This document shows positions 1 through 12,590 of a stretch of DNA of 64,000 nt, piece after piece. Each line of letters begins with the position of its first letter. The stretch's first letter is position 1. Under the pieces are notes generated by a model. It saw nothing but the letters and a program-made list of their open reading frames with translations. It searched no databases and was not told the DNA's origin. The position numbers and the translations under genes were made by a program. This DNA is from a phage, in the NCBI GenBank assembly GCA_038314665.1, contig GCA_038314665.1_3677.1; one strand, given 5' to 3'.

Positions 1-10
1 AAAAAAATTA

Positions 11-38
11 TTGACACGCTGCAAAATTAAAGTAAACT
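11..38 (+). promoter_or_regulatory. sigma70-like promoter (TTGACA-N16-TAAACT)
   Basis: TTGACA at 11-16, TAAACT at 33-38, followed by GC hairpin 49-67 and RBS before the ATG at 87. Confidence 0.5.
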
Positions 39-86
39 AGACACAAAAGGCGGGAATGTTTCCCGCCAACACAAAGGAAAAAGATC

Positions 87-482
87 ATGAATAAGAACGT
101 ACGCCGCATCATGAACGAACTGGCAAACGATGAAAAAATTATTGATATGCATTTGGTCAACATTTGCCGCCGTTGTGTAACATATAACAACCGCGCCGCA
201 AAAGCGCGTGAGATGAACGCAAAAGGCACCTTAAAGCCCTTTCAGGTGGTTGTAAAATCTATAGCTAATGCAGCAGGCCAGGCGCATGACCACAACAACG
301 AGAGCACTAATATTGATCCGTCTTACGTAATGAAACGGATCCGGACTTGCAAGAATAAAGAGCAGGTGTATAACGTCATAGATTGGCTGGACTCCATGGG
401 CGATGTGGTTTATAATAGGTTTTCTGCAGCTATCGAGATCCAGCTTGACAGACTGGACGGGAAAGTACTGAAAACTTACTGA
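87..482 (+). CDS. hypothetical early protein (131 aa)
   Basis: ORF with upstream promoter and AAAGGAAAAAG RBS; no recognisable domain. Confidence 0.6.
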   Translation: MNKNVRRIMNELANDEKIIDMHLVNICRRCVTYNNRAAKAREMNAKGTLKPFQVVVKSIANAAGQAHDHNNESTNIDPSYVMKRIRTCKNKEQVYNVIDWLDSMGDVVYNRFSAAIEIQLDRLDGKVLKTY

Positions 483-530
483 GTTTATTTTTAGATGGCC
501 TTGACTCCAGGGCCATCAATAAAGTAAACT
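483..530 (+). repeat. recurrent 48-bp intergenic element, copy 1 (palindrome GATGGCC-N10-GGCCATC around TTGACT, then TAAACT)
   Basis: near-identical copies at 1102-1149 and 4816-4866, degenerate copy at 1437-1487; each starts right after a stop codon. Confidence 0.7.
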
Positions 531-561
531 AACCACAGTTGAGCGGAAAGGGGGCTTAAAG

Positions 562-681
562 ATGAGTACTACACGCCAGCACACAAAGGTAACTATTATC
601 GTTTGCATCATTGGTTACATCCTGGCGCAAATGTTGATGGGTAGCGCCAACGGTATCGCAAAATTTTTCTTAAACTTTTAA
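562..681 (+). CDS. small hydrophobic peptide (39 aa)
   Basis: ATG at 562 after AAGGGGG RBS; hydrophobic core IIVCIIGYILAQMLMG; below the ORF-track size cutoff. Confidence 0.35.
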   Translation: MSTTRQHTKVTIIVCIIGYILAQMLMGSANGIAKFFLNF

Positions 682-709
682 TTGACAAGCTAACTTAGAT
701 CAGTATACT
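682..709 (+). promoter_or_regulatory. sigma70-like promoter (TTGACA-N16-TATACT)
   Basis: TTGACA 682-687, TATACT 704-709, hairpin GGGAAAACTTCCC and RBS before ATG 760. Confidence 0.6.
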
Positions 710-759
710 AAACACATAAACGGGAAAACTTCCCAGAACACACAAAAGGAGAAAACACC

Positions 760-1101
760 ATGACTACTATGACCGCCGCAGAAAAAGCTATGCAGATCGC
801 CGCGCTGAAAAAACAGATCGCAGACCTTGAGAACAAGATCGATAACTTTGAAATCGACGAGGACAAGTACGACGAAAACTATGATGAATGGTTAGACGAG
901 ATCTACGGCGAAATTATGATCGGAAACATTTCTTTTCTTCCGTCGCGTATCCTCAAGGAGCTAGATCCTATCGCTTACCGCTGCGGATTTAGCGACTACA
1001 TCGACAGCCTGGATATTGAGGACGATGAAGAATACCAGGAATTGCAGACAGAGCTTGAAGAAGTGAAAGAAGAGCTTTCAGAGCTGGAAGAAAACGAGTA
1101 A
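760..1101 (+). CDS. hypothetical highly acidic early protein (113 aa)
   Basis: ORF with RBS AAAGGAGAAAAC; Asp/Glu-rich, coiled-coil-like N-terminus. Confidence 0.6.
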   Translation: MTTMTAAEKAMQIAALKKQIADLENKIDNFEIDEDKYDENYDEWLDEIYGEIMIGNISFLPSRILKELDPIAYRCGFSDYIDSLDIEDDEEYQELQTELEEVKEELSELEENE

Positions 1102-1149
1102 ATTTATTTTTAGATGGCCTTGACTCCAGGGCCATCAATAAAGTAAACT
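1102..1149 (+). repeat. recurrent 48-bp intergenic element, copy 2
   Basis: AATTTATTTTTAGATGGCCTTGACTCCAGGGCCATCAATAAAGTAAACT. Confidence 0.7.
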
Positions 1150-1190
1150 TTATACCGTTAACACTGAACTAATACAGAGGAGTTAAAACC

Positions 1191-1436
1191 ATGGCAGCAC
1201 TAATCACCAAATATTACGCCCCTACCAACACCAAAAGCGCCCGTATCATGGTAAAAGGCTTCGGACGTAAAAAGGTTTACACCTGGGATTATTCCCTAGA
1301 CATGGAAGACAACTACACCAACGCGATGACCGATTTTATTAATGAACTAAATAAGCAGATCTTGACAAATTATAAAGTGACAGATATTGCTTATATAGGT
1401 GAAGGCGGGATCTGTTTTGTAGGCATTGTGAAATAG
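1191..1436 (+). CDS. hypothetical protein (81 aa)
   Basis: ORF with GAGGAG RBS. Confidence 0.55.
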   Translation: MAALITKYYAPTNTKSARIMVKGFGRKKVYTWDYSLDMEDNYTNAMTDFINELNKQILTNYKVTDIAYIGEGGICFVGIVK

Positions 1437-1487
1437 TTATTTTTTCGGTGGCCCTGGCTGCAGGACCATCTATAAAGATAATTTACT
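1437..1487 (+). repeat. degenerate copy of the recurrent intergenic element
   Basis: TTATTTTTTCGGTGGCCCTGGCTGCAGGACCATCTATAAAGATAATTTACT; same position after a stop codon, palindrome altered. Confidence 0.45.
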
Positions 1488-1511
1488 AACACCATGAAAG
1501 GAGAAAGTAAC

Positions 1512-1865
1512 ATGATCAGCGGGGCTAGTTTTATTATTGGCGCTATTGCTACGGCTTTAATTGTAAACAAGATCCAGGATAAAAAGGAAAGAGGAAGTAC
1601 CGCCCTTGCAGAATATCCATTTTGGACATTCAACGATAACGAAGATTATATTATAAAGTATAAAAATAAAGAAGGTGACCAAGTAACACCGCGACCGATC
1701 CCGGCTTACAAGATGCAGGAAACACTATACCGCCTGGAAGCGGGTGGCGCAAAAATTGTAGACTTTTGGGGATACGATCACACAGATCAGGAAGCTATAA
1801 AGCGACGTATCAGGGCTATTCAGGCCAATATTGAAGTTAGCAAGGGGGGAATATATGAAGATTAA
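1512..1865 (+). CDS. hypothetical protein with N-terminal transmembrane segment (117 aa)
   Basis: start moved to the ATG at 1512, which has an AAAGGAGA RBS 7 nt upstream (ORF track starts at 1494); N-terminus ISGASFIIGAIATALIV. Confidence 0.5.
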   Translation: MISGASFIIGAIATALIVNKIQDKKERGSTALAEYPFWTFNDNEDYIIKYKNKEGDQVTPRPIPAYKMQETLYRLEAGGAKIVDFWGYDHTDQEAIKRRIRAIQANIEVSKGGIYED

Positions 1866-2052
1866 TTTTGAGAAAATTGTAAAGCGATCTCATGATTCCG
1901 AAGAGCTGCCGGAACGCCGCCAGCGTAACAATAAACTGAATAAGCCAAAAAGATTTGGGAAGATCTGGCGGAATCATTATGATCGTAAATTGCCGGGCCT
2001 CCTTTTGGAACGTGAACGGCAGGCGGAACGATACCGCCACAAAGGCAACTAA
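1855..2052 (+). CDS. hypothetical basic protein (65 aa)
   Basis: ATG at 1855 after GGGGGGAA; ORF track gives a TTG start at 1831; followed by a terminator. Confidence 0.4.
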   Translation: MKINFEKIVKRSHDSEELPERRQRNNKLNKPKRFGKIWRNHYDRKLPGLLLERERQAERYRHKGN

Positions 2053-2062
2053 CAACCACAAC

Positions 2063-2091
2063 GCCCCGCCATCGTGCGGGGCTTTTTATTT
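2063..2091 (+). terminator. rho-independent terminator
   Basis: GCCCCGCC-ATCGT-GCGGGGC hairpin followed by TTTTTATTT. Confidence 0.7.
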
Positions 2092-2212
2092 CTACCGTAC
2101 GAATAGCGCCCCTGGTTGGCCCCACAACGCCCTAAAAGCCCCCTACCCATGCAATCCCATTTCTTAACCTGAAAACATCGTCAAAGGCTGTTTTAAAGCG
2201 TTAAAAATATTG

Positions 2213-2240
2213 TTGACATCTAAAATATTCTAGATATACT
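2213..2240 (+). promoter_or_regulatory. sigma70-like promoter (TTGACA-N16-TATACT)
   Basis: hexamers at 2213-2218 and 2235-2240, upstream of the CDS at 2276. Confidence 0.6.
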
Positions 2241-2275
2241 AATCACATCAAAGCGAGAAGTAAGGAGTAAACGAC

Positions 2276-2536
2276 ATGCGTAAATTGAAAAATTTTGATA
2301 AAGTCGATGTTGTCCTAAATAGTTTTTACTACTGCAATAATAAAGCCGTTTGGTGGCGTGATAGTTCCACCGATAAGGTTAAGGCGCGCTTTCTCCAGGG
2401 GCACTGGCAAGGCCGCCCAGTGATTAAAATCATGGGGCAATTGGTAGCGTTTAAAAATTGCCGCCGTGTTGATGACGTTGAGGAGATTTTAAACATTTTG
2501 CGCCACAATAATTTAAAAAATAGTGTTGACAAGTAA
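2276..2536 (+). CDS. hypothetical protein (86 aa)
   Basis: ORF with AAGGAG RBS. Confidence 0.55.
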   Translation: MRKLKNFDKVDVVLNSFYYCNNKAVWWRDSSTDKVKARFLQGHWQGRPVIKIMGQLVAFKNCRRVDDVEEILNILRHNNLKNSVDK

Positions 2537-2553
2537 ATCTCAATAAGTATAAT
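2526..2553 (+). promoter_or_regulatory. sigma70-like promoter (TTGACA-N16-TATAAT)
   Basis: consensus hexamers; followed by hairpin GGCGGGAAAACTTCCCGCC (2564-2582) and RBS. Confidence 0.65.
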
Positions 2554-2610
2554 TAAACACACAGGCGGGAAAACTTCCCGCCACTAACAAAGAAAACAGG
2601 AGAAAATATC

Positions 2611-3234
2611 ATGACCACCGTTAACATTACCACAGGTTACAATTTATCTTTCGACGTGCTGACCGACGAACAAAAAGAAAAAGCCATTGAAATGGTCCGC
2701 GAAAGAGAAGAACACAGCGGGGATGACTTTTTTGCAGAAAGTGTAATTGAACACTACAAAGAACAAGTTTTTCCAGAGTACGGCCTTGAAGATACCGAAG
2801 TACGTTGGTCCGGCTTTTGGTGCCAGGGTGACGGCGCGTCAATCAGTGCTGAAAACGTGGATTTAGAAAAATTCTTGCGTAAAGTCAAGGCCCTGACCAA
2901 GTTCCGATCAATTCGTCACTTGTTCGGTACAATGCGCGATGGCGAACTATCAGCCAGTGTTGAACGTATCCCGTTTAGCCATTATCACCACGAAAACACA
3001 ATAGGAGGGTGCATCGATACTAATTGGCTAGACCTGACCACCAAGCAAGAGGACAAAGTTGAAGAGCTGGAAGAGCTGATCACCGAGACGGTACGGGAGC
3101 TATCCCGCAAGGTTTACGTAGACCTGGAGGAGGCCTATCTAGAACAGTTCACTACCGAAAACCTGATCGGCCTTATTGAGGCCAATGATTGGCGGTTTGA
3201 TGTGGATGAATATGGGGAGATGAGTTTTTCATAA
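2611..3234 (+). CDS. hypothetical acidic protein (207 aa)
   Basis: ORF with RBS ACAGGAGAAAA; acidic; no confident family assignment. Confidence 0.6.
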   Translation: MTTVNITTGYNLSFDVLTDEQKEKAIEMVREREEHSGDDFFAESVIEHYKEQVFPEYGLEDTEVRWSGFWCQGDGASISAENVDLEKFLRKVKALTKFRSIRHLFGTMRDGELSASVERIPFSHYHHENTIGGCIDTNWLDLTTKQEDKVEELEELITETVRELSRKVYVDLEEAYLEQFTTENLIGLIEANDWRFDVDEYGEMSFS

Positions 3235-3241
3235 ATAAAGT

Positions 3242-3269
3242 GTTGCAATAATCTAAAAACCTGCTATAT
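3242..3269 (+). promoter_or_regulatory. sigma70-like promoter (TTGCAA-N16-TATATT)
   Basis: followed by hairpin GGGGCAAACGTCTTGCCCC and RBS. Confidence 0.5.
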
Positions 3270-3323
3270 TAAAAACTCAAGGGGCAAACGTCTTGCCCCA
3301 CACAAAACAAAGAGGATAACATC

Positions 3324-3704
3324 ATGAAAAACACTACCAAGGCTATTGACACCGTTATGTTTAACCTGGTTACATTCCGTGAAGATATGAAAGATCTTCC
3401 GCGTGAAACAGTGTGCGACCATATCGAAAACTATCGCAAACTGATCAAAGAGTTGCCTTTAAAACGTGATCAATATGCGGCTAACGCCATGCTTAATGCC
3501 ATGATCAAAAAGATGATCCAGTGTGATTTAACTCTGGCCTATGACTATGCGGGTGGTCGTTTTGCAGTATACAATCAGCCCGTGCCCGGTATGGGCACCA
3601 CCGAAGAATTGCACGCGCTCAATCTAAAACAAGACGTGTGGGATAGTATGCCCCGCGTGGTGGTGTGGGCAGAAAGCGGAAAGATTTACGGCGATAATTT
3701 TTAA
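3324..3704 (+). CDS. hypothetical protein (126 aa)
   Basis: ORF with AAGAGGA RBS. Confidence 0.6.
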   Translation: MKNTTKAIDTVMFNLVTFREDMKDLPRETVCDHIENYRKLIKELPLKRDQYAANAMLNAMIKKMIQCDLTLAYDYAGGRFAVYNQPVPGMGTTEELHALNLKQDVWDSMPRVVVWAESGKIYGDNF

Positions 3705-3768
3705 TCAGGTAACAGGCGGCATATTTGCCGCCTTATTGTTAAACAGAACTGCAAAAGAGGTACATAGA

Positions 3769-4140
3769 ATGGAATTTATTATTTTGGCTGTATTGGTTGC
3801 CTTGTTTAACGCCTGGATCGCTGGCAAGATGGGCAGGTCCGCCTTTTTATGGTTTATTATATCTATTTTCCTGGGGGTGGTTGCAACTATTGTATTGGTT
3901 ATCCTTGCAATTGTTGACAAGGGGAATAATAGAAAGGGTAAAGTATTTTCAGACCTGTACGACGCTCAAACGTTTGTCAACGCCTATTATAGTGATCTTC
4001 CAGTCTCCCTACGCTGCAGCCTGGCACAACAGGTTTTTGATGAGGCTAAAACCAGAGATCAAGCCCATGAGATATGTTTAACTGAGGCGGATCGCCTATT
4101 TGAGAGGAATAGAAAATATGTGGGCCAACCGTTTAAATAA
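3769..4140 (+). CDS. small membrane protein, two predicted TM helices (123 aa)
   Basis: start taken at the ATG with AGAGG RBS (MEFIILAVLVALF...); ORF track begins at 3736. Confidence 0.5.
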   Translation: MEFIILAVLVALFNAWIAGKMGRSAFLWFIISIFLGVVATIVLVILAIVDKGNNRKGKVFSDLYDAQTFVNAYYSDLPVSLRCSLAQQVFDEAKTRDQAHEICLTEADRLFERNRKYVGQPFK

Positions 4141-4363
4141 TGCCACGTTAATTAATCCCTTTAGTGAAGATTTGAAGCCAGCCGCCTGGCGTGACGGATT
4201 CAATAACGAACGCTTTATTTTCAGGCCTGATCTTGAGGAATTTTATAACAATGGATCGAACAACAGCGGAGATAATTTTTCTTGTGGTGTGTGTCGTGAT
4301 AGGACTCCTGGGGGCCATTGTAAACCACGTCACTACTACCAGAAGGAAAGGGGGAGACGATGA
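4118..4363 (+). CDS. hypothetical Asn-rich protein (81 aa), frame uncertain
   Basis: ATG after GAGAGGAATAG; an alternative overlapping frame (4251-4376) encodes a TM peptide; cannot be resolved by eye. Confidence 0.3.
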   Translation: MWANRLNNATLINPFSEDLKPAAWRDGFNNERFIFRPDLEEFYNNGSNNSGDNFSCGVCRDRTPGGHCKPRHYYQKERGRR

Positions 4364-4479
4364 CAACCAAGGATAAGCCCAGCACCGATAAGGTGCGCCG
4401 GGTTATGGTATGGCTGGAGATCATCGCCCTTGAAATATTGTTAGGCGTAGGGATGTACTTTATCGCTGTAAGTAACTAA
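4360..4479 (+). CDS. small membrane peptide (39 aa)
   Basis: ATG after AGGAAAGGGGGAG; hydrophobic WLEIIALEILLGVGMYFIAV; followed by a terminator. Confidence 0.4.
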   Translation: MTTKDKPSTDKVRRVMVWLEIIALEILLGVGMYFIAVSN

Positions 4480-4484
4480 GAACG

Positions 4485-4512
4485 GCCCCCGATCATGGGG
4501 GCTTATCTTTTT
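4485..4512 (+). terminator. rho-independent terminator
   Basis: GCCCCCGATCATGGGGGC hairpin followed by TTATCTTTTT. Confidence 0.7.
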
Positions 4513-4614
4513 AAAAATTTTTCTTCCGTGGTGTTGCAATCCGGTCCGGAATGTGGATAATAACAATCAACGGGGAGCTAATCCCCACCACAAAAACCAG
4601 AAAGGAGAAACAAA

Positions 4615-4815
4615 ATGAGCAACAATATCCGCGTTATTAACTTCAAAAAAGAAGAAAAAATTGCCGTGCTGATTGACGGTCAAGAAATCTTCAAGGGCGA
4701 CTATGAAGATCATCAAACGGCGATTAGTATCACTCGCGTGATTGGTTACCATAATTTTTACCCCCAAGGCGCTGAGGCAGCGGTTAAACGAATCAAAGAG
4801 ATTGTAGGCCTGTAA
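4615..4815 (+). CDS. hypothetical protein (66 aa)
   Basis: ORF with AAAGGAGAAAC RBS. Confidence 0.55.
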   Translation: MSNNIRVINFKKEEKIAVLIDGQEIFKGDYEDHQTAISITRVIGYHNFYPQGAEAAVKRIKEIVGL

Positions 4816-4866
4816 AATTTATTTTTAGATGGCCTTGACTCCAGGGCCATCAATAAAGTAAATTTA
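4816..4866 (+). repeat. recurrent 48-bp intergenic element, copy 4
   Basis: AATTTATTTTTAGATGGCCTTGACTCCAGGGCCATCAATAAAGTAAAT. Confidence 0.7.
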
Positions 4867-4899
4867 AACCCTGTTAAAATACCACGCAGTTAACAAGGA

Positions 4900-5208
4900 G
4901 TGATAGACATGTTTATCCAGGCTAATAATCTTTATTTCTTTGATGGTCAGATCGTAGATGGTGTGGAAGTGGAGATCACCGGGTGCCCTGGCGGTCAGGC
5001 TATGACTTTTCGGAATAATGCCTTTAATGATTCTCATATCGTTATGAGAATGGAAGTTACGAAGCTGGATGACAAGAAAACACTTATTGACTATTCTGTG
5101 AAAGATCATCCAGACTACCACATGATCTATGGTGATTTGTGCATTGTTGACCGTGACAAGGTGAGCGGCATTGTGATCGCTATTGTGAACGATGTTTTCT
5201 CAAACTAA
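4900..5208 (+). CDS. hypothetical protein (102 aa)
   Basis: ORF with AAGGAG RBS. Confidence 0.55.
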   Translation: MIDMFIQANNLYFFDGQIVDGVEVEITGCPGGQAMTFRNNAFNDSHIVMRMEVTKLDDKKTLIDYSVKDHPDYHMIYGDLCIVDRDKVSGIVIAIVNDVFSN

Positions 5209-5225
5209 TTTCAACAGGTGATTTT

Positions 5226-5576
5226 ATGAAAGTTAAATTATATTACCTTAATGAGCTTAACCCCCTTGCCCAGGTCCACGCCCTAGCTAATACCTTGATT
5301 TGTGAGAAATCTGTATATTGTGTTGAGCTTAACGCCATGCGTGAACGTCTCAAAGGTGGTTACTTTAACATCCATGCTGCAATCAACGGCCTGAATATGG
5401 AATTTATCCGTTTACGTAACAGCCGCCGGAATCTGGCAAGAATGGAACAAGATCCGGCCCACCTTCGTAAGCTGGTTATTGAAAATCATCTGATGTTTAA
5501 TGCCGAGGGTGATTATTACCATTTTCACCGCAAACGCTGGTACCGTGGCGGCAATACAGGCAAGAATGCAAAATAA
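5226..5576 (+). CDS. hypothetical basic protein (116 aa)
   Basis: ORF 18 nt after the previous stop. Confidence 0.5.
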   Translation: MKVKLYYLNELNPLAQVHALANTLICEKSVYCVELNAMRERLKGGYFNIHAAINGLNMEFIRLRNSRRNLARMEQDPAHLRKLVIENHLMFNAEGDYYHFHRKRWYRGGNTGKNAK

Positions 5577-5613
5577 GGCCCCAGGCAGGGCCTACAGCGA
5601 CCTAAACACTAGC

Positions 5614-5645
5614 AGGCTATGCGATTGCATAGCCTTTATTGTTTT
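5614..5645 (+). terminator. rho-independent terminator
   Basis: AGGCTATGC-GATT-GCATAGCCT hairpin followed by TTATTGTTTT. Confidence 0.6.
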
Positions 5646-5777
5646 GACGTTACAACGGCCCTAAGGCGCTTAAAAAATTTTTAAAGAAGTACTTGCATCA
5701 TTCCCGACAATATGGATAATAAGAGTTGTCGAGGGGGAGGCCCCCAATCATTGACCAGATAGATAGGAGTTAAAATC

Positions 5778-6062
5778 ATGGCTATTGTTACCGCTGGCGA
5801 TGTAGTAGAAATGGAAGCAAAATACTTAAAAGCGGGTATGCATATCCTACGGAATGATCAAGAGTTATTATTAACGATGGTTGACTATAATCCCGGCCAG
5901 GATTATCCAAGCATCGACTACTTTTTTGAGTATGTTAATGAAGAGTTGAAAGAGGATGAGGCCTACTGCGGTGAGTTCTGCAACTTCTTTTGTCCTGATG
6001 AGGTTGTAAAGGTTATTTATCAACCTGGCGTAGCTTTCCCGCTGCACGCTATCAATAAATAA
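5778..6062 (+). CDS. hypothetical protein (94 aa)
   Basis: ORF with TAGGAG RBS; promoter-like TTGCAT...TATGGATAAT upstream. Confidence 0.55.
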   Translation: MAIVTAGDVVEMEAKYLKAGMHILRNDQELLLTMVDYNPGQDYPSIDYFFEYVNEELKEDEAYCGEFCNFFCPDEVVKVIYQPGVAFPLHAINK

Positions 6063-6126
6063 ACCTGGCGGGGCCGAAAAGGCCCCTACAGCATAAAATT
6101 ATGAAAGTAAAGAGAGGTAAATCATC

Positions 6127-6360
6127 ATGATGGAACAAATTAAACGCACCGAGGCTATTAATGGCAATGTGATCTATTTTGTTAGCAATAACGAGAAAGG
6201 CGTACCATATGCGGCGGTAATAGTACAGCCTGACGGTGATTATTGGTTTACTGTATACGGATCTTATTCTTTCGGGCGTCCGGTGCATGATAGAATTTTG
6301 AAAGTAGCGAACCCTACCGGGAAGAATATCACAGCAGAAAAATTTTTTGAAAATAGTTGA
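6127..6360 (+). CDS. hypothetical protein (77 aa)
   Basis: ORF with AGAGAGG RBS. Confidence 0.5.
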   Translation: MMEQIKRTEAINGNVIYFVSNNEKGVPYAAVIVQPDGDYWFTVYGSYSFGRPVHDRILKVANPTGKNITAEKFFENS

Positions 6361-6384
6361 CATGACCATATAAAACTGTAATAT
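6357..6384 (+). promoter_or_regulatory. sigma70-like promoter (TTGACA-N16-TAATAT)
   Basis: followed by hairpin GGGGCCCAAGCCCC and RBS before the ATG at 6436. Confidence 0.55.
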
Positions 6385-6435
6385 ATAAATCAAAGAGGGG
6401 CCCAAGCCCCACCAACCACAAAGAGGATAAAAATC

Positions 6436-6615
6436 ATGGCTATTATTGCAAAGACCGAGATCGTAGGCTTAGATTCTATTCTCCTCGCATATGAGGAAGC
6501 TATAGAAATGTATGTGGTTTCCTATGGTGAGTATATCCGTGAATATGAATCTATTGATCTAGCTTTTGAATGTTATATTCGCCAGGTTAATAAAGCGTAC
6601 GATGATTATCGTTAA
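6436..6615 (+). CDS. hypothetical protein (59 aa)
   Basis: ATG at 6436 with the same leader architecture (CACAAAGAGGATAAAAATC-ATG); below the ORF-track cutoff. Confidence 0.5.
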   Translation: MAIIAKTEIVGLDSILLAYEEAIEMYVVSYGEYIREYESIDLAFECYIRQVNKAYDDYR

Positions 6616-6707
6616 AATAGTTTGACAACAAACAACCATCTAACAAAGCATAATACATAAGGTGGTAGAATGATCCGCCACCCCGGAACAAAGAAGAGGT
6701 AAACACC

Positions 6708-6953
6708 ATGAAAAGCAATAAAGGTTATAACGGTTACAAAAACAAAACTCATTGGAATGTAAGCCTTTGGATTAATAACGATGAGTCATTGTACCGGTTG
6801 GCCCAAGGCTTTATTAACGCTAATGCTAATCGTAATGATGCGGCGCGGGATATGATGCTTTTTCTGGAGCTAACCGGACAAGATAAGACCCCGGACGGCT
6901 TCAAGTACAGCACTACGGCGATCCGTGCCGCGATGGTTGGAATGAAACACTAA
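6708..6953 (+). CDS. hypothetical protein (81 aa)
   Basis: ORF with promoter TTGACA...CATAAT, hairpin GGTGG...CCACC and RBS. Confidence 0.55.
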   Translation: MKSNKGYNGYKNKTHWNVSLWINNDESLYRLAQGFINANANRNDAARDMMLFLELTGQDKTPDGFKYSTTAIRAAMVGMKH

Positions 6954-7144
6954 AAGCACATAGCCGCCTTACCCTGGGGCTGTGGTAGCGGCCCCATGAA
7001 TAAGGTTACTAACAGAAGAGAATAAACACCATAAAACAGAAATTAATCGATGCAGTGATCTTGATTATTGCCCTGGGTATTGGCCTGATTGCAACCATGT
7101 CTAATATGATCTTGTCTTCCAACGGTATCGGGTGAGGTTGGCAA

Positions 7145-7360
7145 ATGATCACTAACAAAACGGGCAAAACAGAATTTTTACGCAACTTACAGATCGGCAA
7201 GCCTGAGATCTGGTACTGCACTAAAACACCGCGTGACGAAATGAAAGACTTCACCGCCACGCTGCAACGGGTAAAGATATCTATCACGCAGAAAAAGGCC
7301 TTACTAGTGGTGGAAGGGGAGATCCCCCAAACCGTTGTTATAGTTGAGCGTACAGCATAG
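7145..7360 (+). CDS. hypothetical protein (71 aa)
   Basis: ORF only; weak RBS. Confidence 0.4.
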   Translation: MITNKTGKTEFLRNLQIGKPEIWYCTKTPRDEMKDFTATLQRVKISITQKKALLVVEGEIPQTVVIVERTA

Positions 7361-7451
7361 TTTAATTTATACCGATACCCGAAAATTAACCAACAAATCA
7401 TAAACAGGCGGTTACCGCCGCCTTAAACGTAGCAGAAAGAGGATAGACACA

Positions 7452-7742
7452 ATGAAAAAGATGATCGCAGTGGTTGCCCTGGTTGTTGGACTTAGTGCGC
7501 CTGCAATGGCTAATGAGCTGGCAAAAGAGGTTAATCTAACGGATATTCATGCCGTCAATCGAATCGGGGTTACTTATCGCTTATGCCTTGCCACTAAAAC
7601 TTTTAATGACGGTACAACAGAGTACTACGGATTCGAGGGTATCCGGTGCGGTGAACTTGCTCGCGACCTTAAGGAAGATCCAGACCTGGAAGATTTGCCG
7701 ATGACGGTAAACGGTAAAGCTTACGTAAACCGCCAACAATAA
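7452..7742 (+). CDS. small secreted protein with Sec-type signal peptide (96 aa)
   Basis: MKKMIAVVALVVGLSAPAMA-NE signal peptide; RBS AGAAAGAGGA. Confidence 0.6.
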   Translation: MKKMIAVVALVVGLSAPAMANELAKEVNLTDIHAVNRIGVTYRLCLATKTFNDGTTEYYGFEGIRCGELARDLKEDPDLEDLPMTVNGKAYVNRQQ

Positions 7743-7758
7743 GTAAGGGCGATGTAAA

Positions 7759-7950
7759 ATGAATACTGAACAAGTTAGAAAGGTATTGGCGGTACTGCGT
7801 TATCATAATCATAAAAAGGTGATAGACGATCCTGATTATGTAGATTCCAGCCTGGAAGAAGACACGCTACAAGCTATAGGCCATATGCAAGAATTGCTTA
7901 AACGCATGACAGAGAAAAACCGACCGGACTACATAGGGGGTAAAATATGA
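7759..7950 (+). CDS. hypothetical protein (63 aa)
   Basis: ORF with RBS. Confidence 0.5.
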   Translation: MNTEQVRKVLAVLRYHNHKKVIDDPDYVDSSLEEDTLQAIGHMQELLKRMTEKNRPDYIGGKI

Positions 7951-8258
7951 TCGCTATTACGCCAACCGTTTTAGATTGGTATCGGCAACGCATAGCGCCT
8001 CCACTGGCTATCTTCAAAGATGCGGAAGCAAAACAACGCCGGATCTCAATACATGAGATCATCAACCTTAACGCTGGAGGCACACCATACCGCCCAGGAC
8101 CTGGCCGTGAGATGGACAATACATTGGCGATCCTGAAGATACGCCGTAAACGGTCCTCCCTTACGCTGGATTCATTACACACAATGCAGTCTCCGTTCCA
8201 GGTGACTGGGAAACGGATCGCCAGGTCCTGGACAAAGGCCAATGACCGGACCGTATAA
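7947..8258 (+). CDS. hypothetical protein (103 aa)
   Basis: ATGA start/stop overlap with the upstream ORF. Confidence 0.5.
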   Translation: MIAITPTVLDWYRQRIAPPLAIFKDAEAKQRRISIHEIINLNAGGTPYRPGPGREMDNTLAILKIRRKRSSLTLDSLHTMQSPFQVTGKRIARSWTKANDRTV

Positions 8259-8476
8259 ATAAAAAGTGTTTTGGTACTGATTTTGGGGTTGACTTGTTCG
8301 GCCCCTTTTGCTATTCTTATTAAACGGGCGGCACTTGGAAACAGGTGGAGACAATCACCGGGCCTGCCTGTCATATAAGAACTATAAAAACCGTTGACAT
8401 CTGCCATGGGGTGGGGTAACATTTATCTTGAAGGGGCAAAGGTGCCCACACAACAACCAGAAGAGAGGAAAACACT

Positions 8477-8749
8477 ATGTCAAGCTGGATTAATCAAGAA
8501 GTCGAATCACGTTTTAATGCTATTTGGGATCTCATCGAAAAAGAAGACGGCACATCAAGCCCCTACCTCAACAATTTGGAATTCCATTTTGTGGAAGCGA
8601 TGAACGCAGAACATGATCACGAAGGTGGTGCGGACGAGTTCGCTAAAGGGTATGGCTTCAACAATGCCAACGAAATGATCGAGGCGGTTGTACTCCAGGC
8701 TGAGGAAGATTATCAATTAAAAACGCTTGAATTCTGCCGCCGTAAGTAA
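8477..8749 (+). CDS. hypothetical acidic protein (90 aa)
   Basis: promoter TTGACA (8395) and RBS AGAGAGGAAAAC; preferred over the overlapping ORF 8394-8603. Confidence 0.55.
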   Translation: MSSWINQEVESRFNAIWDLIEKEDGTSSPYLNNLEFHFVEAMNAEHDHEGGADEFAKGYGFNNANEMIEAVVLQAEEDYQLKTLEFCRRK

Positions 8750-8809
8750 TAAGATAATGACACGGGCCGGGAGGCCCACTAATCAGAACCACACAAAGAG
8801 GTAAACATC

Positions 8810-9073
8810 ATGAAACGTCTTGATCAGCTTAAACTAGTTCAGTACATGGCCTACAAAGTTCTTGAAGTCCAAAAAGGTAGCAAAAAAGAGGTTTGCGAGA
8901 AAGCATATAAGATCTTTACCCGTAAAAAAGATGATTGGATGTTACGCCAGACTAAAAAAGCCGATATCCTGGGGTACCTGGAAGAAGAGATCCGACTTGA
9001 AGAGCAAGAAGAGATCCGCCGCAGTGAGGCAGATTATCAGGCAGCCTGGGAAAACTGGATGAGTAACAAATAA
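8810..9073 (+). CDS. hypothetical protein (87 aa)
   Basis: ORF with RBS AAAGAGGTAAAC and hairpin GGGCCGGGAGGCCC in the leader. Confidence 0.55.
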   Translation: MKRLDQLKLVQYMAYKVLEVQKGSKKEVCEKAYKIFTRKKDDWMLRQTKKADILGYLEEEIRLEEQEEIRRSEADYQAAWENWMSNK

Positions 9074-9140
9074 TACAACAAGTTGCACGATCAGGGGGCA
9101 ATAAAGCCCCTTGATCACATAAAAATTATGCTATCCTTGG

Positions 9141-9169
9141 TTGACAAGGATCGGCAGTTTTGCTATATT
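9141..9169 (+). promoter_or_regulatory. sigma70-like promoter (TTGACA-N17-TATATT)
   Basis: upstream of the CDS at 9219. Confidence 0.6.
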
Positions 9170-9218
9170 CTTTTTTGAAGGGAAGTTGTAAGAAAATTAA
9201 CTAAGAGGTAAAAACACC

Positions 9219-9638
9219 ATGAACATTAAATCTAATAATCCGGCATATAGCTTTGATAACGCTTTTTGTCACGGTCCGGCGGCGAAAGGATTCGAAATCG
9301 ATGGTAAACTAATTATTGTCAATGTTGACGGGGAAGAGGTTGCAGTATATCCGGTGGCAGACGTAAAAAGCCGTTTACAATGCCGCATTGATGTTACCGC
9401 CTATCAGCTTGATCCGGTCCGCATAGTTGCCCTGGTCCTGGAAGAAGAAATTAAAGCCATGCACCATAGCAACAGGTTTATTGGTGACGCTCAGGATAAT
9501 ATGAAGGTGTGCCGCCATAAAGTTAATGAAGTGCTTAAAGAGTACGGTTATAAAGATCTGATGATCAAACGTGAGGAAAAATTCCGCTACCGTAACGACC
9601 TGGCAAATCGAATCTATGAAATATACGAATCATTATAA
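9219..9638 (+). CDS. hypothetical protein (139 aa)
   Basis: ORF with AAGAGG RBS; last gene of the plus-strand early block. Confidence 0.6.
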   Translation: MNIKSNNPAYSFDNAFCHGPAAKGFEIDGKLIIVNVDGEEVAVYPVADVKSRLQCRIDVTAYQLDPVRIVALVLEEEIKAMHHSNRFIGDAQDNMKVCRHKVNEVLKEYGYKDLMIKREEKFRYRNDLANRIYEIYESL

Positions 9639-9656: not shown

Positions 9657-9685
9657 AGGGGCTTTAAAAGGCCCCTTTCTTTTTG
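9657..9685 (+). terminator. rho-independent terminator
   Basis: GGGGC-TTTAAAAG-GCCCC hairpin followed by TTTCTTTTTG. Confidence 0.7.
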
Positions 9686-10292
9686 TCTGTATTTCTCCTA
9701 CCACAAACGGCCCCACCTGGCAAGTGGAATAATTGACTAGCCATCAATCCCACACACTGTACAAACATACATGTAAAATAACTATTGCATAATTTTTCAT
9801 TGTGTGGTAGCAGGGCCATTTTTACCCGTTTTCTCTCTCAAAATTGCACGTAATGCCGCTATTGCACAAAATTTAACCTGATGCATATCTTCAATAGCTT
9901 GTCAACAACTAAAAATCTTTATAAGTCATACACTTACACACTCACAAAAGCGTGTTCTACGTGAAAAATCGAGTATAACTATAGCCGCCAGATCTCAGAA
10001 TTTACGTACGTTCACCATTCTATAGTCTGCTAAGTATTTATTCCAACCATAGAATAATGGAATAGTCAATACCTGCATAAAATAATTATTCGTATAAACT
10101 GCATAACATAAATCAGCTTAGGTGTCAACATTTTTCGTAAACAGCCTGAAATTATCACGGTGAGTTATCATAAACAGAGAAATCTTTAGTCGTCTAATGT
10201 TTACTGTACATTACTATACTTACTGGAATCATTAGATGACTAAGAGAAAGATAAGAAATAATTAACAATACAATTATTTTATATGTAACAAT

Positions 10293-10483
10293 AAGGCAAC
10301 TATGCAAACGAATGGCATGGCGCGACGGAGTCGCGACATAATATAAAAGCAGTAACCATCACCCCCGTGATAGTTTGTCTGCAATCTATTAATCAGATCA
10401 TAGTTGCCTTGTATTTAGTTAATCATGACATAACAAGCAAGGCAACTATAGATCTGCTAATAGTTGCCCTGCTTTTATATTAT
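10293..10483. repeat. nested inverted-repeat / hairpin cluster
   Basis: GGCAACTAT and ATAGTTGCC alternate four times; 15-bp inverted repeat ATAATATAAAAGCAG / CTGCTTTTATATTAT; palindromes CGCGAC..GTCGCG and GTGACTAAAGGTCAC; flanked by 20-bp direct repeats ATGCAAACGAATGGCATGGC (10303) and ATGCAAACGAATGTCATGGC (10609). Confidence 0.6.
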
Positions 10484-10629
10484 GTCATAGAAACACCCGA
10501 AGGGGTGACTAAAGGTCACCTGGCATAGCCAGTGAAAGATTATTAACCTGCTAATTGTCAGCTTATTGGCTGTTAGCTTGTCAATTGTTAACTTGTTAAT
10601 TGTTATCATGCAAACGAATGTCATGGCTT

Positions 10630-10800
10630 ATCATTTTTGTGTAAACAGTCAATCATGTAAATGATAAGTATGTGAACAGTTATCCATGTAAACTATTAGA
10701 TATGTAAACTATCGGTTATGTAAACAGTAAGAGCGTGAACAGTAAAGGGAGTGAATAGTAATAGCGTGAATAGTGACAGCGTAAACAGTCAGGCATGTCA
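10630..10800. repeat. tandem degenerate short repeats (ATGTAAAC / GTGAACAGT / GTGAATAGT units)
   Basis: at least ten units, roughly 11-14 bp period, visible by eye; non-coding. Confidence 0.6.
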
Positions 10801-11363
10801 ATTATGTTTAATGTGCCCAGTATGTCAAAGGTGTCATGTTATGTCACTATTGTGTCAGACAAGTTTTTCTCCTCTTTGTCAAGTGCTGCATGAAAAATTT
10901 ACAATCTGGTATGGTAGCATTTTTGCGGCCCTGTTTACATTCAGTTGTGTATGTATAATCCTTGTTGTGCGGGCGTTTGGACGTCTAGATGGTTGGAAGT
11001 CTGCAGGTCAATATCTAATCTATCGGCTGTTAACTATATCCCACACAAATAGTAAGAAATATAATTGTTATATGCGTAAACAGTAACTCATGTTATCAAT
11101 CCCTGTATGTATCGCCAGTGGTGCGCATAATGGGTATTATGTTAAATTGCCCGTAATGATAACTATTCTCACAATGATAGGTATTCTCATTCAATCCCAC
11201 AAGATAGGTTGCAAATGTTGTGCCACTGTGTGAACGGCCTCACCTATTAATTTGCCACACTGCCCCGATATTTGAGAATTGTTATAAGAATGAGAAGTAT
11301 TCCCATTTCGTCCGCCTGGCAGCACTCCAGTCGCTACCGCTTATGACAGGGCAGAGCTAGACC

Positions 11364-11512
11364 CTCTTCAGATATTTCTGGCTGACTCTTCAGGTCTGTG
11401 TGGGAAAAGCCAATCTCTCCGGCGGCGGGGAGGGGGTCAATTAAAAAATTTATGTGGTGTATGAAGCGCTCTTCAGGTAAGGCATGTATTATGGGATGAA
11501 ACCCTCTTCAGG
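11364..11512. repeat. cluster of CTCTTCAGG motifs
   Basis: copies at 11364, 11386, 11469 and 11504, with further copies at 11894 and 12544; interleaved G-rich GGCGGGGAGGGGGT (11421) and CCCGGCGGGGCAGGGG (11566). Confidence 0.5.
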
Positions 11513-12253
11513 TGATGATATTTGTGGGTGTGATATTTGCTGGAAAGTCAGATATGACGGGACTCCCGGCGGGGCAGGGGTAGTACAGACAGGGAAAATA
11601 TGGGGATGTAGTTGGGGAAATTGATCAGACAGGTGGAGTATAGTATATGTTACAAGTATGTTAAATAGAGAGGTTTAATATCTGTAAGATTTGTGTGTAA
11701 AATCAAAGACTTAAGTGGTGTTGTGGTATTTTCTATAAATAATTCAAGTTTAATAGGGAATATTTGTCAGAAAGGCAGGTTCAGGTTATTTAAAGTGGTA
11801 TTTCAGATGCATGTTTACAGAAGCAGGTAACCCCCCTCCCCCTTCGGCTACCATTCACCTTTTCCTCTGACTGGTACTTAAACACTTATTCAGACTCTTC
11901 AGGTTATCACCCATATATCATATGGCAGTGACTGGTGTCCTCCGGCCCCTCTTTCGTCACCCGTCCGCTTCGCCATGCTAATGCCATAGCCAGTGGTTCG
12001 GTTGTTCACCCTGTTCACTCAGGTGTATCTCCATACCCCTTCAAACCGAAGAGAACAGAAAACCCGAATTACTCGGTAAAAGAAAAGAGAAGAACTTAAT
12101 TTTATCAGGATAGGCAAGAATGTCAAGGCATGACTGCTCACTAAACAAGCAAACAGTCATGTGTGGGAGGTAAGTGATTGTGGTGGTAGGAAATTTAGTT
12201 GAAAGATGTGTTATGGGTGCTCCCAGCACTTTAGCCGGGCAATTAATTGTGTG

Positions 12254-12469
12254 TCAGTCCAGTGGTTCATCCCCTACTTCACTGAAATCGATGTTCATGG
12301 TCTCCTCCCAACCATCAATCTCAGCACCAGAGTAGAGATCTTTAGGACTTACTCCCAAAGCCTCAGCAACAGAGTCCATATTTAACACCTCTGGCAGGTA
12401 TGATTCATCGAATTCAAGGTAAATCAGGCCACGAGTGTTGTCAGCTCCACCAAATATTTCTATCTTCAT
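12254..12469 (-). CDS. hypothetical small acidic protein (71 aa)
   Basis: last ORF of the minus-strand array; acidic C-terminus. Confidence 0.5.
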   Translation of the reverse strand: MKIEIFGGADNTRGLIYLEFDESYLPEVLNMDSVAEALGVSPKDLYSGAEIDGWEETMNIDFSEVGDEPLD

Positions 12470-12590
12470 GAAATCTCCTCTGGAAATGAGAGTGTGAACA
12501 GGGTTTTATACGTCCCAATGCACAGGAATTATGCACGTTTGCCTCTTCAGGCCATGCTTTAGCATGAGGAACCTGTGTGGGCTCGGTGCT

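Follow-up and report, generated by a model that had tools for sequence, protein, structure and literature searches.

Several T4-like phages carry elements termed PeSL (promoter-early stem-loop), which consist of a sigma70-like promoter, a polyG/polyC stem-loop of variable position (mostly in the promoter spacer or over the -10 hexamer), and a Shine-Dalgarno (SD) sequence with start codon, and which occur in ORFan-rich hyperplastic regions (Arbiol et al. 2010, PMC2839356; Comeau et al. 2014, PMC4122927). PeSLs have been reported in RB49/phi1, T4/PST and KVP40/nt-1, and their authors propose that they attenuate upstream transcription and allow modular shuffling (PMC2839356; PMC4122927). Rare copies downstream of the -10 hexamer are mentioned, and one PeSL stem-loop cut lacZ expression about as much as the terminator rrnB T1 (Arbiol et al. 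2010, PMC2839356). PeSL mini-circles have been reported in RB49 and phi1. Here, a related element is described in 64,000 nucleotides of phage DNA (assembly GCA_038314665.1, contig GCA_038314665.1_3677.1; this whole stretch is called the window). It is a cassette in which a GC hairpin lies between the -10 hexamer and the ribosome-binding site of small early genes.

PeSL is the closest known kind of element and, judged from the sequence, the cassette appears to be PeSL-like, with the stem-loop moved into the transcribed leader. A description of this placement in Vequintavirinae or Stephanstirmvirinae was not found in the searchable literature. The rV5 genome paper gives sigma70-like promoters and terminators without mention of leader hairpins, and these are likewise unmentioned in the Certrevirus paper on a shared early promoter.

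Hairpin cassettes of the early genes

The window represents an rV5-like coliphage (Vequintavirus). Over bases 1-9300, it shares 96-97.6% identity with phages EI-SP-GF, Pr121LW, LL12 and Murica, and 300 phage records gave a match. About 27 small genes on the plus strand occupy positions 1-9638. They are followed by a stretch poor in open reading frames (ORFs; 9.7-12.5 kb), a minus-strand block (12.5-51 kb) and then plus-strand genes.

Reading and scanning of the upstream regions revealed the same order of parts before nine early genes in 1-9.2 kb: a sigma70-type promoter, 8-12 nt, a GC hairpin, a linker of A and C, an SD sequence, and ATG. These class-A cassettes precede the ATGs at 87, 760, 2611, 3324, 4615, 5778, 6436, 8477 and 8810; a degenerate tenth copy precedes ATG 6708. 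The promoters combine a -35 hexamer of the TTGACA, TTGCAA or TTGAAT type with a TATAAT-like -10 hexamer at a distance of 16-17 nt, score 9-12 of 12, and have A-rich runs upstream. PhagePromoter annotations in the record of phage Gotham coincide with them. The hairpins possess a stem of 5-8 bp and a loop of 3-5 nt, and have folding energies of -6 to -15 kcal/mol; 183 G compare to 39 C in the 5' arms. They are located 19-32 nt 5' of the ATG, and the SD sequence after the linker is AAAGAGG, AAAGGAG (AAGGAG) or AGAGAGG. A first-pass annotation of this DNA had assigned the layout to more than ten genes and had postulated a conserved ribosome-binding motif. The layout itself is borne out, with the count lowered to nine complete cassettes and one degenerate copy. 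The A/C linker and the purine-rich SD sequence are also common features; the exact motif ACACAAAGAGG is not uniform, and exact ACAAAGAGG is confined to three leaders. It is the composition and not a fixed 11-mer that is conserved. The leader families were recovered independently by a repeat finder.

All cassettes are encoded on the plus strand. The first (11-89) consists of TTGACA (11-16), TAAACT (33-38), an 8-bp hairpin with loop tgt (49-67) and ATG 87, and its leader folds with -14.6 kcal/mol (z-score -4.3). In the second (682-762), the -35 hexamer at 682-687 and TATACT at 704-709 are followed by hairpin GGGAAaacTTCCC at 722-734 and ATG 760 (z -2.1). The third (2526-2613) has a promoter that matches the consensus in 12 of 12 positions (TTGACA-16-TATAAT, 2526-2553), followed by hairpin GGCGGGAAAACTTCCCGCC at 2564-2582 and ATG 2611 (z -5.4). 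The fourth (3243-3326) combines TTGCAA-16-TATATT, which has an extended -10 TG, with hairpin GGGGCAAACGTCTTGCCCC at 3281-3299, the sequence ACACAAAACAAAGAGG and ATG 3324. Cassettes five (4534-4617; TTGCAA-16-GATAAT, hairpin 4572-4586, ATG 4615) and six (5693-5780; TTGCAT-16-GATAAT, hairpin GGGGGaggCCCCC at 5733-5745, ATG 5778) stand behind T-tract terminators at 4484-4503 and 5614-5635, respectively. The leader of the sixth is less A/C-pure than the others, and its whole-leader z-score is -0.3. Cassette seven (6357-6438) comprises TTGACA-16-TAATAT, a hairpin at 6397-6410, ACCAACCACAAAGAGG and ATG 6436. The degenerate copy (6622-6710) has TTGACA at 6622-6627, CATAAT at 6649-6654, a spacer of 21 nt and an imperfect hairpin at 6661-6682 before ATG 6708. 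Cassette nine (8394-8479; TTGACA-17-TAACAT, hairpin 8434-8447, ATG 8477) is located behind the terminator at 8285-8305. The tenth (8727-8812; TTGAAT-17-TAAGAT, hairpin GGGCCGGGAGGCCC at 8764-8777, CACACAAAGAGG, ATG 8810) has a promoter that overlaps the end of the upstream gene. The three hairpins given as examples in the first-pass annotation, those of cassettes three, four and ten, are thus found at their places.

In an automatic scan, eight hairpins started 8-12 nt past a promoter-like -10 hexamer, compared to 0.33 expected over the whole region (Poisson P ~3e-9) and 0.68 expected when only intergenic DNA is considered (P ~7e-7). In the remaining 54 kb of the window, no such pair of promoter and hairpin was detected on either strand. 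The distance from the -10 hexamer to the hairpin is 10.2 +/- 1.7 nt despite differing linker sequences, the distance from hairpin to ATG is 26.7 +/- 3.9 nt, and that between the upstream stop codon and the hairpin is 70 +/- 58 nt. Since the hairpin position is fixed past the -10 hexamer, the hairpin should be transcribed as part of the gene's own mRNA. With the transcript start predicted 7 nt past the -10 hexamer, the hairpins begin at about +2 to +7, mostly at +5, and the leader is predicted to fold into 4-6 unpaired nucleotides, a single hairpin, and open sequence up to the ATG, with z-scores of -1.5 to -5.4 in nine of the ten cassettes. A start at the 7th or 8th nucleotide past the -10 hexamer, a purine in 9 of the 10 cassettes, would leave 2-6 unpaired nucleotides, mostly four. 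The earlier interpretation is thus supported in part: the hairpins stand just past the predicted transcript start, and the geometry would fit that of a 5'-terminal protective stem-loop, albeit at the edge of the reported protective range.

The 12 nt 3' of the hairpins consist of A and C to 88%, compared to 52% expected (P ~4e-17). A linker of A and C only is strand-asymmetric and therefore seems to reflect selection on RNA. In combination with the tight coupling of the hairpin to the -10 hexamer, this asymmetry points to selection on the transcript.

Hairpin diversity and indel breakpoints among related phages

For comparison, homologous early regions were taken from six Vequintavirus genomes and from phages that are more distant. 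The same order of parts precedes nearly every small early gene of Phapecoctavirus Ro121lw, Justusliebigvirus alia and KKP_3264, the vequintavirine Serratia phage ChuuTotoro, and the 348-kb jumbo phage PBECO4 (Asteriusvirus). Across Vequintavirus, Phapecoctavirus, Justusliebigvirus, ChuuTotoro and PBECO4, the hairpin starts 8-14 nt past the -10 hexamer, with a mode of 10. In Certrevirus CR3, the hairpin is located within the promoter and the leaders are hairpin-free and fully unstructured. The T4-like phage RB49, whose sequence was read directly, also has the hairpin within the promoter; its UP element, A/C leader and SD sequence are as in the window. PBECO4 (3889-8707) contains cassettes with related stems of the type GCGGGAA-N3-TTCCCGC, a stem family that recurs across genera, and Vequintavirus YP-6 contains Phapecoctavirus-type cassettes at 8673-8997. 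These occurrences suggest that ORFans are exchanged together with their expression signals across phage families.

The hairpins themselves are diverse. A table of 13 loci lists about 60 distinct class-A hairpins, among which at least 14 different inner stems are represented; as it was anchored on the loop and selected for paired hairpins, it documents diversity without being a test of significance. Most are perfectly paired, and the 5' arm is nearly always G-rich. The loops comprise 3-8 nt without a consensus and vary even among genomes that are 90-97% identical; for example, GGGA is replaced by AAAA, GCTAA by AACA and ACA, and AAGG by AAAG. In other genera, another hairpin occupies this place before the orthologous genes. 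Two hairpins, 3281-3299 and 7406-7423, exactly match the reverse complement of the corresponding hairpin in close relatives (GGGGCAAacgtcTTGCCCC versus GGGGCAAgacgtTTGCCCC); these flips are small inversions of the loop between the inverted arms. For the hairpin at 7406-7423, the flipped form is that of YP-6, and Phapecoctavirus has another stem in its stead. In the deposited sequence of V18, a run of about 17 G takes the place of the hairpin orthologous to that at 5733-5745, which points either to an assembly artefact or to a hypervariable homopolymer.

From a MAFFT alignment of 95 leaders, RNAalifold deduced no consensus structure, as stems and loops are of unequal length and their arms fall out of register. 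A scan of positions 1-13 kb against Rfam 15 yielded two sub-threshold chance matches only. Given the differing stems, the free loops and the tolerated flips, structure rather than sequence is kept in the hairpins.

Furthermore, insertions and deletions that distinguish close relatives have their ends in cassettes, as deduced by Blast against six of these genomes. Gene 2611-3234 is removed in YP-6 between two -35 hexamers (2528/3233), and gene 6708-6953 is removed in Gotham and V18 between SD-proximal repeats (6705-6722/7011-7014). A further breakpoint at 6362 lies in a -35 hexamer, and the leader 8778-8813 is duplicated on either side of an extra gene in Gotham. Gotham also contains a different, hairpin-less cassette before the 8810 orthologue, and V18 has a 760-type hairpin in the 2611 cassette, which corresponds to a gene conversion between cassettes. 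The deletion of 5201-5566 does not coincide with a cassette. Most breakpoints are located at -35 hexamers or SD-proximal repeats and not at the hairpin itself.

Hairpins are also found beyond the class-A cassettes. In the intergenic ARRANGEMENTS of the early region (1-9.7 kb), every spacer of at least 60 nt has at least one GC hairpin, and about three quarters have a promoter. Genes 3769, 6127, 7031 and 7452 are preceded by a hairpin and a ribosome-binding site without a recognizable promoter. Their hairpins, all on the plus strand, are located at 3714-3733 (36 nt 5' of ATG 3769, with the weak T tail TATTGTT), 6070-6086 (GGGGCCgaaaaGGCCCC, without T tail, upstream of ATG 6127), 6975-6996 (without T tail, upstream of the small gene 7031) and 7406-7423 (upstream of ATG 7452). 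The gene at 7031-7135 has 34 codons, is hydrophobic and starts with ATA here; in Murica, Gotham, FFH2 and V18, the close relatives checked, the same SD sequence is followed by ATG, so the start codon was lost or weakened in this phage. An 11-bp hairpin without T tail (9089-9116, plus strand) lies past the stop codon at 9073 and 5' of a promoter at 9141-9169. This promoter serves ATG 9219 and, like that of gene 2276, has a leader without hairpin. The latter (2213-2278, plus strand; TTGACA-16-TATACT, ATG 2276) is located behind the terminator at 2063-2082, and its leader is predicted to be unstructured (minimum free energy 0). Canonical T-tract terminators on the plus strand are those at 2063-2082, 4484-4503, 5614-5635, 8285-8305 and 9657-9676. 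The hairpin of the terminator at 8285-8305 contains TTGACT, and TATTCT 17 nt downstream completes a promoter-like site (8285-8317), such that terminator and promoter overlap.

A distinct promoter class, class-B, is represented by a 51-nt repeat in four plus-strand copies, with a stem-loop around the -35 hexamer. It is composed of a T-rich run, a 10-bp palindrome GATGGCCTTGactcCAGGGCCATC that encloses the -35 hexamer TTGACT, and the -10 hexamer TAAACT. The copies serve gene 562 (481-531, with the palindrome at 494-517), gene 1191 (1100-1150), gene 1512 (1434-1484) and gene 4909 (4815-4865). The copy before gene 1512 is 73% identical and has retained the palindrome and lost the -35 hexamer. In the Murica record, the class-B repeat is annotated as a terminator.

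Downstream of the early genes, the ORF-poor stretch (9700-12500) contains short tandem repeats at 10571-10605, 10686-10789 and 11155-11189, and both strands have promoter-like sites. Beside it, the Gotham record is linearized, with a terminal 'repeat_region'; the stretch may be a genome end or an origin region. Among the matching records, 22 are named 'Campylobacter phage', and two of them, MG065690 and MG065644, are about 97% identical to this region of an E. coli phage. Their host labels look doubtful.

Proposed role of the hairpin and alternatives

The hairpin may well be a generic end-cap and insulator of RNA, which would act on the 5' end of the gene's own transcript and, as a 3' barrier or attenuator, on read-through RNA; we consider this a reasonable but by no means assured reading. 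Each small ORFan gene brings its own cassette, in which a strong host sigma70 promoter is preceded by an A-rich element and followed by a self-contained G(n)-loop-C(n) hairpin. This hairpin would be the first structured element of the gene's own mRNA, from about +2 to +7, and any read-through RNA coming from the gene upstream would contain it as well. It would make the primary transcript less accessible to 5'-end-dependent attack by RppH and the 5' sensor of RNase E, and for the upstream cistron it would serve as a 3' exonuclease barrier or attenuator. The A/C linker should be unable to pair with itself or with the C-rich 3' arm, and the resulting open leader would keep the ribosome-binding site free for high translation, with a purine-rich SD sequence at optimal distance from the ATG. 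At the level of DNA, the repeated cassettes might secondarily act as recombination points that shuffle ORFans. The sequences show the anatomy of the cassette, the precision of its spacing, its restriction to the early region, its recurrence in other phage genera and the indel breakpoints within it; the start site, the stabilization of RNA and the attenuation are what we infer. It is known that base-paired 5' ends are poor substrates of RNase E and that the pyrophosphohydrolase prefers single-stranded 5' ends (reviewed in PMC3997798).

The phage may have a reason to protect its messages in this way. Srd of T4 is a stimulator of RNase E action on host mRNA, and gp11 of rV5 was reported as an Srd homologue (rV5 genome paper), which would make such a need plausible. 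A more far-reaching version, which we consider unlikely, is that the leader hairpin marks early mRNAs as 'self' and exempts them from Srd-boosted 5'-end-dependent decay, and that the same cassettes travel with ORFans between rV5-like, phi92-like, 121Q-like jumbo and T4-like phages.

A number of observations speak against a function as RNA end-cap. With about four unpaired nucleotides at the predicted 5' end, the leaders are at the edge of the reported protective range; for hairpins of the ompA/papA type, Emory, Bouvet and Belasco reportedly placed its upper edge at this very value in 1992. RppH needs only 2-3 free nucleotides. Hairpins are present in every intergenic spacer of at least 60 nt, five of them without a promoter, and in CR3, RB49 and the class-B elements of the window the hairpin lies inside the promoter, where it cannot begin the mRNA of the gene itself. 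What is conserved may therefore be a role in DNA or in transcripts from upstream. Because promoter-less spacers have the hairpin and relatives have it inside the promoter, the position at the 5' end is not a universal property of the element. Moreover, the constraint on the hairpin is not absolute: upstream of the 6436 orthologue, Murica and V18 have a weakened hairpin and Gotham has lost it. Mismatches of the G.T and A.C type occur in the stems 3-6 and 6 times, respectively, that is, without strand bias, and the stems alone do not tell selection on RNA from selection on DNA. The fixed spacing between -10 hexamer and hairpin could in part result from common descent of the cassettes. Finally, usable transcription-start or RNA-seq data for Vequintavirus or Phapecoctavirus were not found in the literature, and the start sites used here are predicted ones.

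The main rival to the end-cap is a hairpin that acts on upstream transcripts only, either as a terminator or attenuator that keeps transcription from building up over successive strong promoters or solely as a barrier to 3' exonucleases, and whose place in the gene's own leader is incidental. We regard this as a real possibility, albeit a rather doubtful one. It would account for the hairpins in promoter-less spacers and inside the promoters of CR3, RB49 and class-B, it agrees with the effect of the PeSL stem-loop on lacZ, and the annotators of phages Alma and Murica called the leader hairpins terminators. However, a T-rich tail (at least five T in the 8 nt 3' of the hairpin on the sense strand) was found in none of 95 unique class-A leaders, including 42 from Vequintavirus. 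In Vequintavirus, these 8 nt contain on average 0.45 T, compared to 5-7 in the true terminators of the region. The sequence past the hairpin is thus depleted in T, which argues against canonical termination. The 19-mer GGCGGGAA-N3-TTCCCGCC, which occurs in 115 IMG/VR contigs, is followed by a T-rich tail in 78 of 116 copies, and only three IMG/VR copies stand in a promoter-leader context. In addition, the phage uses canonical T-tract terminators where they are needed, and three of the four promoters directly behind such terminators (4534, 5693 and 8394) keep their leader hairpin, where attenuation of upstream transcription would be redundant. The hairpin is also tightly coupled to the -10 hexamer and not to the upstream stop codon. 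A related idea is that the hairpins terminate antisense transcription that enters from the convergent minus-strand block. Indeed, on the minus strand 16 of the 42 Vequintavirus leaders have a tail with at least five T (mean 4.2 T in 8 nt), and six hairpins were flagged as minus-strand terminators by a scan. Yet in Phapecoctavirus, Justusliebigvirus, Asteriusvirus and Certrevirus, which have the same layout, such tails were found in at most one leader per genus, and the high T content is nothing but the A-rich stretch of the leader before the hairpin as read on the other strand. This makes an antisense terminator very improbable.

It is also conceivable, but distinctly unlikely, that the hairpins function mainly as DNA, namely as repeated palindromes at which recombination or template switching moves ORFan cassettes, with any effect on RNA being secondary. 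The breakpoints in cassettes, the swapped cassette of Gotham, the gene conversion in V18 and the exact flips at two loci are all compatible with this, as are the mini-circles of RB49 and phi1, the occurrence of the cassette type in unrelated phage groups including a jumbo phage, and the lack of a bias for G.U over A.C in the stems. On the other hand, recombination requires sequence identity, and no other part of the cassette is as diverse as the stems; the breakpoints prefer -35 hexamers and SD-proximal repeats; and the strand-asymmetric leader and the fixed distance to the -10 hexamer point to the transcript. The first-pass annotation had also considered a shared site to which a phage regulator binds; such a site, for a regulator from phage or host such as an antiterminator of the N/boxB type or a translational repressor, has in our judgement hardly any likelihood. 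A position common to so many early leaders would be in keeping with coordinated control, and the GCGGGAA-N3-TTCCCGC family recurs across genera. However, diverse stems, free loops and tolerated flips argue against a sequence-specific site, unrelated viral contigs commonly use the recurrent 19-mer as a terminator stem, and the Rfam scan gave no match. A Pfam scan of ten early proteins, aimed at an RNA-binding regulator, found no family above the cut-off. Three further candidates were rejected: RNase III sites, on the general ground that the stems are far too short; hairpin promoters of the N4 type, as each hairpin has ordinary sigma70 hexamers upstream of it; and a rut/Rho site in the A/C linker, which extends over only about 12-25 nt before the ribosome-binding site.

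Significance and comparison with known systems

If the hairpin stabilizes or insulates early mRNA, it would help to explain the high and independent expression that dozens of tiny takeover genes attain within minutes of infection, and it may explain how phage messages escape from phage-induced mRNA decay. For annotation, the terminator labels in the Alma and Murica records would give wrong operon maps, as the hairpins lie downstream of promoters and are devoid of a T tract. From a practical point of view, the cassettes are compact (~80 nt) natural parts that combine a strong promoter, a 5' hairpin and an open ribosome-binding site.

Three classes of GC hairpins with a described function resemble the one studied here. 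The T7 gene 10 leader has a 5' stem-loop. With this leader and the 5' untranslated regions of ompA and papA of E. coli, the cassettes share a stable hairpin a few nucleotides from the 5' end, as predicted here, and past it an open leader with a strong ribosome-binding site. They differ in that the start is a predicted one, that about four unpaired nucleotides correspond to the limit of protection, and that the same type of hairpin also occurs without a promoter. With repetitive extragenic palindromic (REP)-like intercistronic stabilizers, they share GC hairpins without T tract between cistrons, five of them promoter-less; in contrast, the hairpins of the window are not a repeated sequence family, and most stand at a fixed distance from a promoter. 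The protection of mRNA from the 3' side is a general principle (PMC3997798). Rho-independent terminators have a similar GC-rich stem, G-rich 5' arm and short loop, and the 19-mer is T-tailed in other viral contigs. In the leaders, however, the hairpins lack a T tract on the sense strand (95 of 95) and lie downstream of a promoter.

The likeness to PeSL is greatest. Common features are an A-rich upstream region, a near-consensus sigma70 promoter, an adjacent G(n)-loop-C(n) stem-loop and, at the 3' end, an SD sequence and a start codon. As in PeSL regions, many copies are clustered among small ORFans (10 class-A and four class-B in 9.2 kb, none in the other 54 kb), and insertions, deletions and replacements between close relatives are bounded by cassettes. 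A stem-loop inside the promoter is found only in the four class-B elements and in relatives such as CR3. In RB49, the stem-loop is mostly located between the -35 and -10 hexamers or around the latter, whereas in class-A it lies 8-12 nt past the -10 hexamer, inside the predicted transcript and without T tract. The lineages differ as well, being Vequintavirinae, Stephanstirmvirinae and Asteriusvirus here and Straboviridae there. The same design, in part with the same stems, is thus present in at least four phage lineages including a jumbo phage, which extends the PeSL idea of a mobile regulatory cassette beyond T4-like phages.

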